From Thermoprotei archaeon (GTDB lineage Archaea; Thermoproteota; Thermoprotei; Thermoproteales; B15-G16), in contig QMRC01000014.1 of assembly GCA_003649205.1 (NCBI GenBank), positions 1 to 49,045 of the forward strand: a stretch of DNA of 49,045 bases, written 5' to 3'. The notes beneath the pieces were generated by a model. That model made no database searches and was not told where the DNA came from. It was given only the letters and a program-made list of their open reading frames with translations. The position numbers were made by a program, and so were the translations under genes. Positions 1-41,955 of this stretch are shown here, one piece after another; position 1 is the first letter of the stretch, and every line of letters begins with the position of its first letter.

Positions 1-50
1 ATGCGGGACTGTGGATCCCGTGAGCCCGGGTTCAAATCCCGGCCGCGGCC
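1..50 (+). tRNA. tRNA-His(GTG), 5' end truncated by window edge
   Basis: Anticodon arm cggga-ct-GTG-ga-tcccg, T-arm ccggg-ttcaaat-cccgg, acceptor 3' strand ccgcggc and discriminator C50. CCA is not encoded directly after it. Confidence 0.93.
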
Positions 51-89
51 GGTTGGGGCACCCGGGGTCAAACCCGGCCCCAACCGCCA
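51..89 (+). ncRNA. Putative tRNA-like minihelix / GC-rich hairpin ending in G-CCA
   Basis: 51-58 GGTTGGGG pairs perfectly with 78-85 CCCCAACC. Inner stem-loop ccggg-gtcaaa-cccgg mimics the T-arm. Followed by G86 and CCA at 87-89. Confidence 0.55.
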
Positions 90-290
90 AATACCTCTAT
101 GAATTCACCTCCTCCGGTTATAGCACCCCTCTAAGCTCATAGCAGAGCACAGAATAATATGCTACACTAGTCCTCGATACTAGTGAGTCATCAAGTATCC
201 CTCATGGTAACTAGCAAGTCGTGCCCTTTCTAAAGTCTACGAGAGTGCTTTAATGAGGGATGTTAATGTCCTTAAATTGACACATGTTAC

Positions 291-1490
291 GTGTATGGGT
301 GTGTTCTCTTGCGTGTTCTTAGATTGAGAGGCCAATCAGTCGATCAATACGCTAGGGATCTCTTTACTGAAGTGAGGAATTTAATTGATAAGTTGGTTCA
401 GAAGTATGGTTTGAGACTGGATAGCATTCGATCACATATTGAGTACTCAAGACCTAGGTACTTCGTCAAGGAGGAAAGTTCATCTGAGAGAGCTATTGCT
501 GTGGGTAGCTTACTAGATGAGCTTAGGAGTCGATGTAGGGAGATCTTACCAGAGAGAATAGTGGTTGAGGATTGTAGTAAGAGATCTTTAGCATATAGAA
601 TTGGTCTCATACTAGCTGACGGTTATGTTGCTGATGATGCTAAGATAGTATTCTCAACAACTAACTACACATTACTTGCAATATTACTCAAGTCCTTCGG
701 CGAAGTGTATGTGAAAGGTGCGTCAACGGCTTGTGTAATGGTTACAGGAGAAGTTAAACCTGTACTCTCATTTCATGTACTGGATAGGGATGCCGTTAGG
801 TTAATGGGGAGAGTGATCGGTGGTGAGGTACCTTTCAATTCTGCTATTGAGTTTGCTGATTTCTTGAGTGGTCTCATTGATGGTGATGGTACTGTTGATG
901 GTTTTAGGTCTGTTATTAGGTTGTGGTGTTGTGAGGAGAAGTTACGTAGGTTTCTTCACGTTCTTGAGGAGTGTAGTAGGCGTGGTTACTTTGACTATGT
1001 TGTTCGTGTTGATGAGGTTCGTGATGGTTCTAAGTTGCTTAGAGTTGACTTCTCTGAACAGTCTATGAGGGAAAGCTGTTTTCTCTACTTACTGGAGCTT
1101 CTTCATCCTGAGAAGTCCTCTGCTCTCAAGAGGATTCGTGGTACTTACCTCAGTAGGGATTCTGTAGCTAGGGTACTGAGTCATCTCAATATTCGCTTTG
1201 TTGAGAAGGTTAATCCGTTTACTGGTGGTGTGAGTAGGAGGATTGAGCTTAGGTTCACGAAGTATAGAGATGAGGTTATTGAATTCCTTACACAGGTACT
1301 TGGAATTCCAAGAGATAGGGTTAAAGTTCGTTCTCTTGGTAGTGGTAGGAAGTGTGTAGCTGTATCAGTTAGTAGGTATCACGTTGATTGGTGTTTAAAG
1401 ATCTTGAAGTTTCTTGAGAAATTCAATCTACGTAGTAGACTTGAGAAACTTAGTGAAGGTGTAAGGTTACTCAGTGAAGATCTTACTTAA
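291..1490 (+). CDS. Free-standing LAGLIDADG-family homing endonuclease-like protein
   Basis: Two LAGLIDADG motifs: AYRIGLILADGYV and DFLSGLIDGDGTV. No intein motifs and no flanking host exons. Start codon uncertain. Confidence 0.75.
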   Translation: MYGCVLLRVLRLRGQSVDQYARDLFTEVRNLIDKLVQKYGLRLDSIRSHIEYSRPRYFVKEESSSERAIAVGSLLDELRSRCREILPERIVVEDCSKRSLAYRIGLILADGYVADDAKIVFSTTNYTLLAILLKSFGEVYVKGASTACVMVTGEVKPVLSFHVLDRDAVRLMGRVIGGEVPFNSAIEFADFLSGLIDGDGTVDGFRSVIRLWCCEEKLRRFLHVLEECSRRGYFDYVVRVDEVRDGSKLLRVDFSEQSMRESCFLYLLELLHPEKSSALKRIRGTYLSRDSVARVLSHLNIRFVEKVNPFTGGVSRRIELRFTKYRDEVIEFLTQVLGIPRDRVKVRSLGSGRKCVAVSVSRYHVDWCLKILKFLEKFNLRSRLEKLSEGVRLLSEDLT

Positions 1491-1500
1491 TTGTCCTCCT

Positions 1501-1989
1501 CTAGGTCCTCACCTTACTTATATAGTTCTTGAGCTTCTGTACTAGTTTCAAGACATCTTCTCTATGTACTTCGAACTCTATCTTCTTCAGGAATCCGTGG
1601 TGGTAATTGGCGTGTAGTCTTTCAGCACTTGCAAATAATCTAGGTAGTTCCCTATCACCTGTTTTCTCCGTTACGTGACTAATTATTTCGTTGAAGTGTA
1701 TGTGCTTGTAGTGTGGTAGTTCTTCTAGTTCGCCTATGATGCTTAGTAGTGTGGTTACAGTACCCCAGTACTTTTCACTTGCTTGTATTAAATCGCCTTT
1801 CTTGTAGAAATCTTCTGCTTCCTTCATGTATTTTTCGTGCAATTTCTCGTAGATTCTGATTCTAGTTTCGGAGTTTGTGACATCAGTAACTAGTTCTAGT
1901 ATGAGCTCTGGTATTGTCTTACCTAGGTTACGTGCTTTCCTATGTAGTAACTCACGTAATTCCTCTGGTATCTCAATTTCTGTATTCAC
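1501..1989 (-). CDS. PaREP1-family (HEPN-like) protein with N-terminal ribbon-helix-helix-like segment
   Basis: Motifs GDLIQASEKYWG and AERLHANY are typical of PaREP1. N-terminus IEIPEELRELLHRKARNLGKTIPELILE resembles CopG/RHH. GGTGA SD-like element before the GTG start. Confidence 0.8.
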   Translation of the reverse strand: MNTEIEIPEELRELLHRKARNLGKTIPELILELVTDVTNSETRIRIYEKLHEKYMKEAEDFYKKGDLIQASEKYWGTVTTLLSIIGELEELPHYKHIHFNEIISHVTEKTGDRELPRLFASAERLHANYHHGFLKKIEFEVHREDVLKLVQKLKNYISKVRT

Positions 1990-2068
1990 GGCACTTCACC
2001 TATCATTGAATTACGTTGAAATTACTAATTTAGTTCTCTGCTCTAAACGTAGTTACTCGGTGAGTACT

Positions 2069-3058
2069 TTGCTTGCTGCTAGGTTATATGGTGCTAGGGA
2101 TCTTCGTCTTGAGGATGTCCCTACTCCTGAAGTTCCTGAGGGTTGGGTTTTAGTTAGGACTCTTGCTGTTGGTATTTGTGGTACTGATAAGGCTTTTTAC
2201 CTAGGTACCTACCCTCTTTTCAAGGTTCCTCTAGTTCCTGGTCATGAGGTTTGTGGTGTAGTTGTTGGGGGTCCTAGGGATTTGGTTGGTAGGAGGGTTG
2301 TTCCTGAGATTAACTTCTCCTGTGGTAGGTGTTCTCTCTGTAGGTTGGGTCTCTACACTCATTGTCCTCACAAGAGGACTCTCGGTATTGACTTCGATGG
2401 TGGTATGGCTGAGTACTTCGTAGCTCCTGTATCTGCTCTACACTTCGTCGATGACCTTGATCCTGTCGTTGCTACTGCTGTTGAGCCTCTAGCTGCTGTA
2501 CTTAATGCTCTTGAGCAGTATCCACCTAAACCTCACATGAAGGTTGCTGTTCTCGGTAGTGGTAATCTAGCTATACTCACTATTCAGGTTCTGAAGTGCT
2601 TTGGTGTTTTGGATGTTGCTGCTATTGCTAGGGATGATAGTCCTAAGGTTAAGTACCTACGTGAGCTAGGTGTTGAGGTTGTTACTCTTAGTCAGTTGAG
2701 TGACTACGTTAAGAGGTGTACTCCTGAAGGTCTTGGTTTTGATATGGTGTTTGAGGTTACTGGTTCTCCTCAAGGTCTTGAACTAGCTATTGACATTACT
2801 AGGCCTAGGGGTGTCATTCACTTGAAGTCTACTCCAGGTGCTAGATCCTGTATTGATTCTACGAGAGCTGTTGTCAAGGAGCTTAAGATAATTGGTACTA
2901 GGTGTGGTACCTTTAGGGAATTTAATAAGGCTATTGAGTTAATTAGAGGAGGTATCGTTAGACCTATTGTGACAAGTACCGTGAAGTTGAGGAGCGTAGT
3001 AGAGGCTTTTGAGAGGTCACTTCGTAGGGAGGAGGTTAAGGTCGTAGTAATTCCTTAG
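2069..3058 (+). CDS. Zinc-dependent medium-chain alcohol dehydrogenase
   Basis: GICGTD, GHE, structural Zn site CGRCSLCRLGLYTHC and Rossmann GSGNLA. TTG start at 2069 after GGTGA was chosen over the ORF start at 1877. Confidence 0.88.
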   Translation: MLAARLYGARDLRLEDVPTPEVPEGWVLVRTLAVGICGTDKAFYLGTYPLFKVPLVPGHEVCGVVVGGPRDLVGRRVVPEINFSCGRCSLCRLGLYTHCPHKRTLGIDFDGGMAEYFVAPVSALHFVDDLDPVVATAVEPLAAVLNALEQYPPKPHMKVAVLGSGNLAILTIQVLKCFGVLDVAAIARDDSPKVKYLRELGVEVVTLSQLSDYVKRCTPEGLGFDMVFEVTGSPQGLELAIDITRPRGVIHLKSTPGARSCIDSTRAVVKELKIIGTRCGTFREFNKAIELIRGGIVRPIVTSTVKLRSVVEAFERSLRREEVKVVVIP

Positions 3059-28882: not shown

Positions 28883-28973
28883 TGGCGCCGGGGGTGGGAT
28901 TTGAACCCACGCGGCCCGTGCGGGCCACGGGCTCTCCAGGCCCGCGCCTTAGACCTGGCTCGGCCACCCCGGC
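28883..28973 (-). tRNA. tRNA-Ser(GGA)
   Basis: Reverse strand reads gccggggtggccgagcc...cgggc-ct-GGA-ga-gcccg, with a long variable arm, GGTTCAAATCC and encoded CCA. Confidence 0.96.
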
Positions 28974-29012: not shown

Positions 29013-30056
29013 TTACTCCTTTGTCTCTGTTCCTGCTTGTTCTGGCTTTGCTTCTTTCTTCTTCTTCCACATTGGTGGGTATGTCCCTGGCTTCATAATT
29101 ACTCTCGTTGTTCTTACTGCAATGCCTTTCTCTACTGTTACCATTTCCTTACTTGTCATCTGTGCTCTTCCTAGAGCTACCAACTCGTTCTTGAGCGTCA
29201 TTATGGCTACGAGGTCACCTGGTTTGATACCGTCCTCTACCTTGACGATTCCAGGTACTGCTAATGAGGCTCCGTGACATATAGCGTCAACAGCTGAGTC
29301 ACGTACATAGACCTTCGGTATGTGTCTAACAGCGTACTCTACTGGGAGTATCACCTTCTTTATGTAGTCAGGTATATTGAATTCACGCCATAGGATTAAG
29401 GCATCTCTCAATTCATTTAGGGTAACTAGGTTCTCATCTTCGTGAAATGGCCCTACACGAATTCTCCTTAGTTCTCTCATGTGCGCACCAACACCTAAGG
29501 CTTCACCAATGTCATGACATAGCTTCCTTACGTATGTACCTGACTCACAGTGTATTCTGAGGAGTACATCCTTTCCTCTCTTCTCGAGAAGCTCTATGTT
29601 GTAGATGTGCTTGATGCGGATTCTCCTCTTAACAGCTGATCTCAGTGGCGGTCTCTGGTATATTGGACCAATAAATTCCTTAAGTACGTCCAGTAGCTGG
29701 CTCTCTGGTACATCGCTGTGAAGCCTCATCAAGCATATGTACTCCTTATCGCATCCTGCAAGTGCTTGTAGTACTTTCGTTGCTTCAGCAAGTGCAACTG
29801 GTAGTACACCAGATACCTTGGGGTCTAGAGTACCTGCATGCCCTGCTTTAGGTATATTGAGCATTCTCTTGATCCACGCAACAACTTCGTGGCTTGTCGG
29901 CCCTCTTGGTTTATCTAGATTCAGTACACCGTACCTGATGTGTGTTTCTGGGTCTCTATCCTCAGGTCTACACCCATACCTTGAGTCAGTGTACTCATCC
30001 TTTACCCTGTAGAGTAACGGTCTCTCGCTCACAGTCGATCTAGTTGCCAAAGTCAC
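29013..30056 (-). CDS. cbf5: H/ACA RNA-guided pseudouridine synthase Cbf5 (TruB family)
   Basis: LDKPRGPTSHEV, GHAGTLDPKVSG, YQRPP, GTYVRKL and a PUA domain. Confidence 0.96.
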   Translation of the reverse strand: MTLATRSTVSERPLLYRVKDEYTDSRYGCRPEDRDPETHIRYGVLNLDKPRGPTSHEVVAWIKRMLNIPKAGHAGTLDPKVSGVLPVALAEATKVLQALAGCDKEYICLMRLHSDVPESQLLDVLKEFIGPIYQRPPLRSAVKRRIRIKHIYNIELLEKRGKDVLLRIHCESGTYVRKLCHDIGEALGVGAHMRELRRIRVGPFHEDENLVTLNELRDALILWREFNIPDYIKKVILPVEYAVRHIPKVYVRDSAVDAICHGASLAVPGIVKVEDGIKPGDLVAIMTLKNELVALGRAQMTSKEMVTVEKGIAVRTTRVIMKPGTYPPMWKKKKEAKPEQAGTETKE

Positions 30057-33407: not shown

Positions 33408-33499
33408 GCCGGGGTGCCCGAGCCAGGTCTAAGGGGTGGGACTCGAGATCCCATGGGGCGTTGCGCCCCGCGTGGGTTCAAATCCCACCCCCGGCGCCA
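33408..33499 (+). tRNA. tRNA-Ser(CGA)
   Basis: gccggggtgcccgagcc...tggga-ct-CGA-ga-tccca, variable arm ggggcg-ttg-cgcccc, GGTTCAAATCC and encoded CCA. Confidence 0.96.
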
Positions 33500-35608: not shown

Positions 35609-36040
35609 ATGTCTGAGAAGAGGTTTGAGTTTTTAGATCACACAGCTGATGTACTCATAAGAGCTTATGGAGATACCTTGGAGAGGGCTTTCGAGAATGC
35701 AGCTCTAGCTGTTTTCGAGGTAATTACAGATACGAGTAAGGTTGAGCCGAAGGTTAGGGTTGAGGTAGAGATAGAAGGTGAAGACCTAGAGCAGCTTCTC
35801 TATAGGTGGATTGAGGAGCTACTGATCCATCATGACAGTGAGGGTCTAGTATTCTCCAAGTTCAGAGTATCAATATCTCGCGAAGATACGATCTACAGGT
35901 TAAGAGGTGAAGCTTGGGGTGAGGTGTTTGATCCAGATAAACACGAGCACAGAACAGTGGTTAAAGCTATGACGTATGCACAGATGGAGATAGGTAAGCT
36001 AGATAGCACACACTACGTACAGTTCGTAGTCGATATTTAG
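35609..36040 (+). CDS. Archease
   Basis: FEFLDHTADV, AFENAALA, VKAMTY, FVVDI; lies upstream of rtcB. Confidence 0.95.
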   Translation: MSEKRFEFLDHTADVLIRAYGDTLERAFENAALAVFEVITDTSKVEPKVRVEVEIEGEDLEQLLYRWIEELLIHHDSEGLVFSKFRVSISREDTIYRLRGEAWGEVFDPDKHEHRTVVKAMTYAQMEIGKLDSTHYVQFVVDI

Positions 36041-36094
36041 TCATTAGCTAAGCTTAAAAGTGTACATATCTTATTGTTGAGCCGAGGGAACTTT

Positions 36095-37549
36095 ATGTCC
36101 CATAGAGTACCACTCAAGAGAGTCGCAGAGTTCGAGTGGGAAATACCGAAGGAATATCGTAGGGAGATGAGAGTACCTGCTAGAATCTTCGCAGATGAGG
36201 TACTGCTAGAGAAGATGAAGACCGACCTAACACTAGTACAGGCAGCCAACGTAGCTTGCTTACCAGGCATCTACAAGTATGCGATAGTTCTACCTGATGG
36301 ACATCAGGGATACGGATTTCCAATAGGTGGTGTAGCCGCTTTCGATGCTGAGGAAGGAGTAATTAGCCCAGGTGGAGTCGGCTATGATATTAACTGTGGT
36401 GTAAGACTTATCAGAACGAACTTAACAATTAAGGAGTTGAGACCGTACCTAAAGGAGCTAATTGACACTATCTTTCGCATGGTACCTTCAGGACTGGGAT
36501 CGACAGGTAAGATAAGGCTAAGCATAAGCGAGATGGACAATGTACTGGCTGAGGGAGTAGATTGGGCAATTAAGCACGGTTACGGTTGGGCTGAAGATAG
36601 GGACTACTGTGAGGAGCACGGTCACATGGTACAGGCAGATCCAGATAAGGTATCGAATAGAGCTAAGAGCAGAGGTAGTAACCAGCTAGGAACACTAGGT
36701 AGTGGAAATCACTTCTTAGAAATCCAGGTAGTTGATAAGATCTACGATCCAGAGAAGGCAAAGGTAATGGGTATCTACGAGGAAGGACAGATCTGCGTTA
36801 TGATCCACACAGGTAGTAGAGGTCTAGGTCATCAGGTATGTAGTGACTACCTACAGATAATGGAGAGAGCAGTTAGGAGGTACGGTATCTGGATACCTGA
36901 TAGAGAGCTAGTATGCGTACCAGCTAAGAGTAAGGAAGCAGAACAGTACTTCTCAGCAATGGCTGCAGCAGCGAACTTCGCATGGGCTAACAGACAGTGT
37001 ATTCTTCATTGGGTGAGAGAAGCATTCAAGAAGGTACTCAAGAAGTCTGAGGAGGAGCTTGGTCTAGAGTTGGTGTACGACGTAGCACATAACATAGCTA
37101 AGCTAGAGGAGCACGTAATCGATGGTAAGAGGAGGAAAGTCTTCGTACACAGAAAGGGTGCGACAAGAGCATTTCCACCAGGACACCCAGATATACCACC
37201 AAAGTACAGGAGCATAGGACAACCAGTACTGATTCCAGGTTCGATGGGTACTGCTTCGTACGTGTTGGTAGGTACACCAAGAGCAATGGAAATAACATTT
37301 GGCTCAACTGCACATGGTGCAGGTAGGTACATGAGTAGAGAAGCAGCTGTGAGAACATGGAGTGGAGTTAGAATTAAACAAGAGCTAGAAGCAAGAGGTA
37401 TCCTCGTTAGAGCAGCTAACATAAGAGTTGTCGCGGAGGAAGCTCCCGGTGCATATAAGGATGTTGATAGGGTTGCAGAGGTAAGTCATAGAGTTGGTAT
37501 TGCAACCAAGGTAGTTAGGTTGGTACCTGTAGCAGTTGCTAAGGGATGA
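36095..37549 (+). CDS. rtcB: RNA 3'-phosphate ligase RtcB
   Basis: [41 protein letters not shown] at 36095. Confidence 0.97.
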
Positions 37550-40446: not shown

Positions 40447-40732
40447 ATGCTCTACACAACTCCTCATCCAACTTAAACAGCTCTCTAAGTAGCTTAATTC
40501 GAGGATCACTTTCATTTACTTTAAATATCCTTATCCTACCAAATCTCTTCTCAATTACTAATCCTGCTTTGACTAGCGCTTCGAGATGTGAGAGAACAAC
40601 TGTGTGGTTAAGCTCTGATCTCTTAACAATTTCAGTTATGTTTAGCTCGTGAGCTTCAAGCAACACCTTCAATACCTTAACCCTACCCTTGCTCGAAAAT
40701 ATTTCCTCCAAAGGTACATAACCACTACTCAT
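40424..40732 (-). CDS. Winged-helix (ArsR-like) DNA-binding protein
   Basis: FSSKGRVKVL, ITEIVK..LNHTVVLSHLEAL, EKRFGRIRIF; start overlaps the cdc6 stop (ATGA). Confidence 0.8.
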   Translation of the reverse strand: MSSGYVPLEEIFSSKGRVKVLKVLLEAHELNITEIVKRSELNHTVVLSHLEALVKAGLVIEKRFGRIRIFKVNESDPRIKLLRELFKLDEELCRASTPSGGT

Positions 40733-41955
40733 CCATGGTCACCGCCCCTTAAGACAGCAAGAATAGTCTTCTCCAAGGTACCTAGTGGCTCGTGCATTAT
40801 TCCTACAAGCGTAGTCCTACCTCTACTATACTTTGAACCTACTGTAGCATTTAAGATGCCTCTACTCTTTAACTCCTGAACGTACTCCCACACCTGTGTA
40901 TGTTGTCTAGGTTTTTCACCAAACTCCTCACACAGCATCCTGTACTCAGCTTCAACCTCACTTAGAGGTACCTTAACTTCGGTTCTCTTCCTCTGGAGAA
41001 CCCTAACAACAGCTAGTAGTAGAAGTAATTGATGCTTCTTCAACGACTTAAGCTCCTCAACAGATATGCTCACTAAGGTATCTTTCACTGCCTTTCTTAC
41101 GTGGTCTGGTAGTATTACGGATGTACCCTCGACTTCAGCTATCTTACCCGCTCTCCACAGTATCTCTATTGCGTACCTAGCATCACCTCTCCCACCTGTA
41201 TCCTTTCCAGAGATTTCAGCAATCATATCGAGAATCTCAGGTCTCACAACACCTTCGATAAAAGCTTCTTCTGCTCTATCGTGTAATATATCGTAGATCT
41301 GTGCCTTGGTGTAGGGTGGAAACTTAATGACGTTGTGCTGTAACGCACTTCGAACACTTGGATCTAGCTTGAATATGAAGTTCTCATCACGTGATATCAA
41401 TATGAGACCTATCCTGTGCTCTCTACCCAGGTACTCGTCTGTAACTCTAACCAGTGTGTAGAGAGCACCTTCACCACCTGGTGTCTGGAGTAGTGAGTCG
41501 ACCTCATCTAAGGTAATTATCACGTAGAGATTCTTATCGACGAGTAGGTCAAGTATTATCTTCAGTAGTTCCTGCGTTGAAAAACCTCTTTTTGGGACAG
41601 GTAACTGAAGTTGAGAAGCAACCTCCTGCAGTATTAGGAAGAGTGTTCTACATTTGTAGCAATTCACGTGAACATACTTAATGGGTTTACCTACCTTCTT
41701 CGCATAATCAGTTACATCTTGACCAAATTTCTTTGCGCATACAGTCTTTCCAGTACCTATGTCACCTACCTCAATCACCTTGGGAAAACATGAACCTGGA
41801 TTCTCAACGAAGTTTATGAAGTACGATACTAGTCTCTTTAGCTGCTCCTCCCTATGAGGTAGCTTAGGGGGTACGTACTCTATAGAGAGTTTACTCTCGT
41901 CCTTAAATATCCTTGAACGTACTTTAGCTATGTACTCCTCAACGATATTTACCAT
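40729..41955 (-). CDS. cdc6: Orc1/Cdc6 replication initiator
   Basis: YVPPKLPHRE, GDIGTGKT, LDEVD, FPPY, GDARYAI and a C-terminal wHTH ending RGRTT. Confidence 0.95.
   Translation of the reverse strand: MVNIVEEYIAKVRSRIFKDESKLSIEYVPPKLPHREEQLKRLVSYFINFVENPGSCFPKVIEVGDIGTGKTVCAKKFGQDVTDYAKKVGKPIKYVHVNCYKCRTLFLILQEVASQLQLPVPKRGFSTQELLKIILDLLVDKNLYVIITLDEVDSLLQTPGGEGALYTLVRVTDEYLGREHRIGLILISRDENFIFKLDPSVRSALQHNVIKFPPYTKAQIYDILHDRAEEAFIEGVVRPEILDMIAEISGKDTGGRGDARYAIEILWRAGKIAEVEGTSVILPDHVRKAVKDTLVSISVEELKSLKKHQLLLLLAVVRVLQRKRTEVKVPLSEVEAEYRMLCEEFGEKPRQHTQVWEYVQELKSRGILNATVGSKYSRGRTTLVGIMHEPLGTLEKTILAVLRGGDHG

Follow-up and report, generated by a model that had tools for sequence, protein, structure and literature searches.

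The window analysed here, a 49,045-nt stretch of DNA from an uncultured hot-spring-type archaeon, begins within a tRNA gene. Positions 1 to 50 of its plus strand hold the 3' part (tRNA positions 23-73) of a tRNA-His with the anticodon GTG, which the Rfam tRNA model (RF00005) matched from model position 23 to 71 at 32.7 bits, with a gathering score of 29. The 5' cut-off of this match is the start of the window itself, and the discriminator, C73, lies at position 50. The complete tRNA-His gene, including an encoded G-1, is found at 1972-2046 of locus L006, which belongs to a conspecific uncultured Thermoproteales MAG. The 7-bp acceptor stem seen there is its own reverse complement; stem and flanks together form a 14-nt perfect palindrome at window positions 39-52. 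ARAGORN places the tRNA-His of L006 at 1972-2047, with G-1 counted as base 1 and the first G of the adjoining hairpin taken as the discriminator, a register that is off by one because of the G-1:C73 pair. Both the tRNA-His convention and the alignment to the Rfam model put the end of the gene at window position 50. We also identified two tRNA-Ser genes in the window, with the anticodons GGA (28883-28973, minus strand) and CGA (33408-33499, plus strand), whose acceptor and T-arms are identical and whose upstream flanks differ. Both tRNA-Ser genes encode CCA, whereas tRNA-His does not.

Immediately after C73, at positions 51-89 of the plus strand, lies a hairpin built from an acceptor-like and a T-arm-like helix. 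The acceptor-like helix is 8 bp long and pairs positions 51-58 (GGTTGGGG) with 78-85 (CCCCAACC); its 5' strand is supported by sequence, fold and geometry scan, and its 3' strand by sequence, fold and alignment. A 3-nt bulge or linker, CAC (59-61; sequence and fold), stands where a full tRNA has its D and anticodon arms. The T-arm-like hairpin (62-77; sequence and alignment) consists of a 5-bp stem, CCGGG/CCCGG, in which 62-66 pair with 73-77, and a 6-nt loop, GTCAAA. All 13 base pairs of the hairpin are Watson-Crick. An unpaired G86 and an encoded CCA (87-89) follow (sequence and fold), and then a trailer, AATACC (90-95), which resembles in sequence the AATTAC found after the CCA of both tRNA-Ser genes. 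G51, the 5' end that a cut at C73 would expose, pairs with C85 in the manner of G-1 with C73 in tRNA-His. An earlier reading of this DNA, made from its letters without database searches, had given the same sequence and the same anatomy (8 bp plus 5 bp, a 6-nt loop and G-CCA, with neither D nor anticodon arm). Sequence and fold bear this description out, and an exact-pattern search returned one copy, with 0 expected in 100 shuffles. The unpaired discriminator of that description needs to be qualified: G86 would be unpaired after cleavage, but in the precursor C50 can provide a ninth pair.

The Rfam tRNA model gave no match to 51-89 even at E<=10, and we therefore regard the hairpin as a mimic of the tRNA top half and not as a tRNA; ARAGORN reported no tRNA within it either. 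An acceptor helix (8 bp) followed by an unpaired discriminator (G86) and CCA (87-89) is present. A cloverleaf is absent, the acceptor-like and T-like helices being only 3 nt apart, and the loop departs from a canonical T-loop (7 nt, with T54, T55, C56 and A58) in that GTCAAA has 6 nt and a G in place of T54. Moreover, the G51:C85 pair closes a stack of 8+5 bp, which is the arrangement of a histidine-type minihelix as defined in the accessible part of PMC9976931. That the helix amounts to 13 bp with a terminal G:C pair, and so has the histidine minihelix format, was missed in the sequence-only reading.

Folding of 51-89 with ViennaRNA gave -26.4 kcal/mol, compared with a mean of -17.96 (sd 2.98) for dinucleotide shuffles of the same segment (z -2.83), of which 1 in 200 was equally good. 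The hairpin is retained in folds of positions 1-140 and of the whole precursor, and at 85 C it is still the optimum, at -7.1 kcal/mol. We scanned both strands of the window and of ten retrieved tRNA-His loci for a helix of 7-8 bp separated by 0-5 nt from one of 5 bp that closes a loop of 6-8 nt, and recovered only the 51-89 element and its copy in L006, whether or not CCA was required. A relaxed form of the pattern (at least 12 bp, at most one G-U, CCA not required) occurred 1.2 times per window in 40 mononucleotide shuffles, with a maximum of 8, and is therefore not rare by itself. The 13-bp, all-Watson-Crick form occurred 0 times in 40 mononucleotide shuffles of the window, and beyond its pairing the real element also has an N-CCA end and abuts a tRNA. 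In base composition the hairpin reaches 74% G+C, against 42% in the next 200 nt and 44% in the window, and the only 40-nt stretches with at least 68% G+C in the 49 kb are the three tRNAs and the hairpin. We conclude that the hairpin at 51-89 is real and lies beyond chance.

Searches for other signals around the hairpin returned little. Across positions 1-400, Rfam at E<=10 offered no credible match for it (BjrC68 reached E 9.9 and, on the minus strand, sul1 reached E 1.4), and a scan for promoters of bacterial rather than archaeal type and for T-rich, terminator-like sites of bacterial type found 0 of either. The spacer at 90-290 was not significant as a structured RNA (z -1.64 and -1.60), and its H/ACA-like match was weak (E 1.5).

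Judged by its sequence, the hairpin is a mosaic of tRNA parts, all of which are present in the window. Its 5-bp stem is the T-stem of tRNA-His, as had been noted before, and the bases flanking the stem are equal too. Compared with the T-loop of tRNA-His, the hairpin loop has a G in place of T54 and lacks one T, so that the T-arm region as a whole differs by 1 substitution and 1 deletion, while the acceptor strand matches that of tRNA-His at 5 of 8 positions. Alignment of the 3' half of the hairpin with the 3' half of tRNA-His scored 9, a value reached by none of 5000 shuffles; the corresponding scores for the two tRNA-Ser genes were 8 and 6. The 7-bp core of the acceptor-like helix (52-58/78-84) corresponds to the tRNA-Ser acceptor with two neighbouring C:G pairs replaced by T:A on both strands, a closeness that had gone unremarked in the earlier reading. 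The outermost pair, G51:C85, has no tRNA-Ser counterpart and occupies the place of G-1:C73 in tRNA-His. Set against the 8-bp stem of tRNA-His, the helix differs in three pairs, all of them compensated, and none of its differences from either the tRNA-Ser or the tRNA-His acceptor is uncompensated.

The likeness extends past the helix, where G86-CCA-AATAC parallels the G73-CCA-AATTAC of both tRNA-Ser genes, in agreement with the trailer resemblance already proposed. The trailer AATTAC shared by the tRNA-Ser genes may represent a processing or termination signal of this genome. It had also been argued that the hairpin is no plain att-type direct repeat, and the sequence favours this view: the hairpin resembles tRNA-His in its T-arm only, and its acceptor helix, complete with both strands, is a different one. 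The search for a full tRNA that could have donated this acceptor, suggested at the same time, was unsuccessful; the 49-kb window and 4 kb of L006 contain no donor and no other copy of either strand motif.

Downstream of the trailer, an ORF with two LAGLIDADG-type motifs occupies positions 291-1490 (plus strand; Pfam PF14528, E 1e-7), which supports the endonuclease that had been placed near the hairpin from the reading frames. The encoded protein has an N-terminal extension of about 90 residues. A word-indexed search returned its L006 copy as the sole homologue, and an exhaustive HMMER search of 1.84 billion representatives returned 10 proteins at E<=1e-3, among which the next best shares 32% identity; there was no solved relative at E<0.1 and no NCBIfam match. 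The ORF is intact in both genomes, with 19 differences from L006 and a pN/pS of 0.64, and could encode a fast-evolving homing endonuclease or a domesticated DNA-binding protein. We considered a link between the endonuclease and the hairpin and set it aside, as they are tied by proximity alone.

The genes further downstream include one of the PaREP1 family, those of an alcohol dehydrogenase and of a membrane protein, and rpoH, rpoB and rpoA, and the window also encodes ribosomal proteins, IleRS, EF-1alpha, Cbf5, archease with RtcB, RFC and Cdc6; 4 of the 42 ORFs scanned belong to no family. The hairpin thus sits at the junction of a conserved tRNA gene and a short lineage-specific stretch comprising the orphan LAGLIDADG ORF and PaREP1. 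In its longest reading, the alcohol dehydrogenase ORF (1877-3058, plus strand) overlaps PaREP1 (1501-1989, minus strand) by about 110 nt; its true start is probably further downstream, because the domain begins at residue 88. Elsewhere in the window, Cbf5 (29013-30056, minus strand) adjoins tRNA-Ser(GGA), and the tRNA-splicing ligase RtcB and its activator archease are neighbours at 35609-37549 (plus strand), with ribosomal protein S7 coming next. Cdc6/Orc1 (40729-41955, minus strand) lies beside the small and large subunits of RFC, and the adjacent intergenic region, at about 40450-40730, may contain a replication origin.

Relatives were collected by scanning genome contigs with a pattern spanning the anticodon arm and T-arm of tRNA-His, which retrieved ten loci; other Thermoproteales tRNA-His genes fall outside this pattern. 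The hairpin is present in one of the ten, L006. The remaining nine come from Desulfurococcales-type or other Thermoprotei MAGs and have unrelated, A+T-rich trailers, and in one of these (L004) the tRNA-His encodes its CCA. L006 and the window are 98.2% identical over 2040 nt, with 36 mismatches and no gaps, and show 0 differences over window positions 1-121. As the two genomes are conspecific and only about 0.7 differences are expected in 39 nt, the identity of the hairpin in L006 is uninformative on conservation or covariation. Among the nine loci without the hairpin, eight (L001-L005, L007, L008 and L010) have GATGA-type, C-box-like motifs at most 56 nt upstream of tRNA-His, and three of these eight also contain CTGA. 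This suggests a C/D-box sRNA gene adjoining tRNA-His in the Desulfurococcales.

In searches of mobile-element records with positions 1-300, all 13 plasmid matches and the best 20 of 35 phage records covered the tRNA part only, up to position 49. These matches reflect a known habit of SSV-type viruses and pNOB8-type plasmids, for which the 3' half of a tRNA serves as the attachment site. With positions 48-95 as the query, phage records gave 1 match (E=3), and the best 15 of 30 plasmid matches were all bacterial (E 3 to 10), both at chance level. Integrase, recombinase and transposase families were absent from 42 of the 43 window ORFs, that is, all but the one at the window end, and no second copy of the tRNA-His 3' end was found in the 49 kb downstream or in the 2 kb upstream present in L006. 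We considered and rejected an att-type or mobile-element origin of the hairpin on the grounds that these 42 ORFs include no integrase, that the DNA searched has no distal repeat and that the complete and partial copies are 10 nt apart.

We hypothesize that the hairpin is a top-half remnant derived from a tRNA, which is co-transcribed with tRNA-His and released by tRNase Z, and we put the chances of this account as a whole at about even. The absence of any spacing from C73 leaves no room for a promoter of its own, which makes co-transcription with tRNA-His the simplest assumption; the 39 nt of the hairpin would then open the 3' trailer of the tRNA-His transcript. For the same reason, any cut at the discriminator of tRNA-His would also create the 5' end of the hairpin. 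The enzyme tRNase Z cuts CCA-less tRNA precursors after the discriminator. From this activity it would be expected to cut after C73 (position 50), freeing the hairpin with a 5' phosphate on G51, and the CCA-adding enzyme would then complete tRNA-His. RNase P, which accepts minihelices of acceptor and T-arm (PMC4033280, available portion), would cut the same 50|51 bond. The hairpin itself would be a passive by-product of tRNA-His maturation, and its perfect helix would speak of a recent origin from a working tRNA, or of a single event that copied one arm from the other, rather than of selection on the hairpin. Compensated changes could also arise in one step, and without selection, if one arm was copied from the other by template switching.

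Several lines of evidence argue for a remnant. Every segment of the hairpin has a tRNA counterpart in the window, and the constraints on a tRNA are relaxed in it, as seen in the 6-nt loop without T54, the stack of 13 bp rather than 12, and the blank Rfam and ARAGORN results. Moreover, only one of the ten retrieved loci, that of the conspecific MAG, has the hairpin, and the DNA behind it is accessory-like, the LAGLIDADG ORF being a near-orphan. More generally, tRNA genes are documented sources of tRNA fragments, and tRNA 3' ends are known insertion points at which such fragments are left behind (available text of preprint 10.1101/2022.07.05.498093 and of PMC3293823). Other observations fit this origin less well. 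The hairpin is not a fragment of the classic type, in that it comes with no kilobase element between copies and with no integrase in the 42 ORFs scanned. Its two strands are perfectly complementary and differ from their counterparts only by compensated changes, as selection on an RNA helix would give; a G+C island is a structural-RNA signature in a thermophile with a G+C-poor genome; and the encoded CCA and native-looking trailer suggest that tRNA end-processing applies to it. The failure to identify a donor tRNA in the 49-kb window or in 4 kb of L006 also counts against a remnant.

Of the other explanations, the one that survives best is a cis-acting processing or stability element for tRNA-His, which we nevertheless consider unlikely. 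Such an element might serve as a second handle for RNase P on the 50|51 bond, fixing the 3' end of tRNA-His despite its paired C73, or it might shield the 3' side of the precursor or insulate the tRNA transcript from the downstream ORF. The zero spacing is consistent with this role, since one cut serves both elements, as are the great stability of the hairpin, the lack of an encoded CCA in tRNA-His alone among the three window tRNAs, and the count of 0 T-rich terminator-like sites in 1-400. However, nine of the ten retrieved tRNA-His loci manage without a hairpin, archaeal termination is not known to need hairpins, and a cis-acting role leaves both the T-arm likeness and the CCA unexplained.

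It seems decidedly unlikely, in our judgement, that the hairpin is a functional stand-alone RNA of the histidine minihelix type, with a 13-bp helix that HisRS binds or charges and a role as decoy, sensor or donor. In such a case the C50|G51 cut could be the work of tRNase Z recognising tRNA-His, of RNase P recognising the minihelix, or of both enzymes. The 5' end would be a phosphorylated G pairing with C85, like G-1 with C73, and the 3' end would be either the encoded GCCA or C85 with a CCA from the CCA enzyme. According to the accessible parts of PMC9976931 and PMC3245924, 13-bp minihelices and 8-bp microhelices are efficient substrates of HisRS when they have G-1:C73, the enzyme relies on the 5' monophosphate of G-1, and the HisRS of the crenarchaeon Aeropyrum pernix does not read the anticodon; the format of the hairpin fits these known substrates. 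Recognition of a tRNA by RNase P, by the CCA enzyme and by many synthetases is, moreover, directed at its top half (PMC4033280, as excerpted). The perfect stem with its compensated differences, the G+C island, the encoded CCA and the tRNA-like trailer can equally be counted in favour of such an RNA, as can the persistence of the fold at 85 C.

Against this, the encoded end differs from that of tRNA-His in having an extra G between C85 and CCA, an obstacle to charging by HisRS that would vanish if the 3' end were formed after C85 and then given its CCA. The T-loop is non-canonical, the hairpin is confined to one species among the ten retrieved loci, and full-text literature searches listed no precedent. 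We assign a low probability to a natural 13-bp histidine-type minihelix that is made by the maturation cut of tRNA-His, end-processed, and bound or charged by HisRS.

We also weighed an insertion, in which a 36-nt hairpin (51-86), either a small mobile palindrome or an intron-like element, came to lie between C73 and an originally encoded CCA of tRNA-His. With 51-86 taken out, C73 would run straight into CCA-AATAC, an end of the type that both tRNA-Ser genes have. However, the likeness to the tRNA-Ser end continues from CCA into the G and the helix strand, so that the CCA belongs with the hairpin. A bulge-helix-bulge motif with its 5' cut at 50|51 is lacking, as is one at 86|87, and the lack of the former argues against an archaeal intron between C73 and CCA. 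Nor is there another copy elsewhere in the window, in the ten loci, or among the phage and plasmid matches listed, and we consider an insertion very doubtful.

An alternative fold of 25-66, which bridges the T-arm of tRNA-His and the 5' half of the hairpin, has the exact geometry of a bulge-helix-bulge, in which helices of 7, 4 and 5 bp are set apart by two 3-nt bulges and the cuts fall at 37|38 and 58|59, and it ranks first among the 14 candidates that the 400-nt region offers. That it is a splicing substrate is nonetheless extremely improbable, even in a window that encodes RtcB and archease: the cuts would split the T-loop of tRNA-His and the joined product would not read as a tRNA, T-arm plus hairpin is the stronger fold by 10 kcal/mol, the window has 17 candidates with helices of equal or greater length (6 on the plus and 11 on the minus strand, some in overlapping registers), and the helices follow from the CCCGGG and acceptor palindromes, of which the motif is probably a by-product.

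If the hairpin is a tRNA remnant, as we favour, it would represent an unusual persistence of a tRNA fragment, with both acceptor strands kept, the whole folded shut, and no spacer to the working tRNA. For tRNA annotation it is also a pitfall, ARAGORN already shifting the end of tRNA-His one base into it. Full-text literature searches listed no paper on a minihelix that a genome encodes in fusion with an archaeal tRNA, and the accessible text of a study of Pyrobaculum small RNAs (PMC3388794) mentions nothing of the kind. In the case of a matured RNA, the hairpin would be the first free minihelix known to us that the genome of a cellular organism encodes, and the operational-code idea, in which synthetases read the acceptor helix alone, would become directly testable, together with the cellular role of the tRNA top half. 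A true minihelix might be a living example of the minihelix stage proposed for the origins of tRNA, or else a new kind of synthetase-directed regulatory RNA.

Among known systems, the mascRNA/MEN-beta family (RF01684) is likewise tRNA-like and embedded in a longer transcript, and it shares with the hairpin a structure that could be released by tRNA-processing enzymes and bear CCA. Its members differ in being eukaryotic, cloverleaf-like and located at the 3' end of long non-coding RNAs, and the weak match of RF01684 in the window (18.9 bits, with a gathering score of 42.5) falls on the tRNA-His part, at 8-49, rather than on the hairpin. The histidine-type tRNA-like structures of viruses and the armless mitochondrial tRNAs are also tRNA mimics of reduced architecture (PMC4033280, accessible part), but they belong to other organisms, have other folds (a pseudoknotted acceptor or a retained anticodon arm) and bear no sequence relation to the hairpin.

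A structural parallel is offered by the synthetic minihelix-His and microhelix-His, described in the available portion of PMC9976931, with which the hairpin shares a coaxial 13-bp helix (8+5), a terminal G:C pair equivalent to G-1:C73, a CCA end, and a 5' G, which in the hairpin would bear its monophosphate only after the predicted cleavage. These helices are laboratory constructs in which CCA directly follows C73 and the T-loop is canonical, whereas the hairpin has an extra G and a 6-nt loop. With the att-type tRNA fragments of archaea, the hairpin has in common that it is a tRNA-derived piece beside an intact tRNA gene, that it marks a border of lineage-specific DNA, and that its T-arm is near-identical to that of its neighbour. 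The known fragments of this type, as characterised in the accessible part of preprint 10.1101/2022.07.05.498093, are direct repeats of the one-stranded 3' (or 5') kind, lying on either side of an integrase-bearing element of 9-23 kb. In the present case, by contrast, the copy is 10 nt away, no integrase was found in the 42 ORFs scanned, the acceptor differs, and both of its strands are there to form a closed minihelix. We regard the hairpin as most likely a tRNA-derived fragment, here closed into a top-half hairpin.
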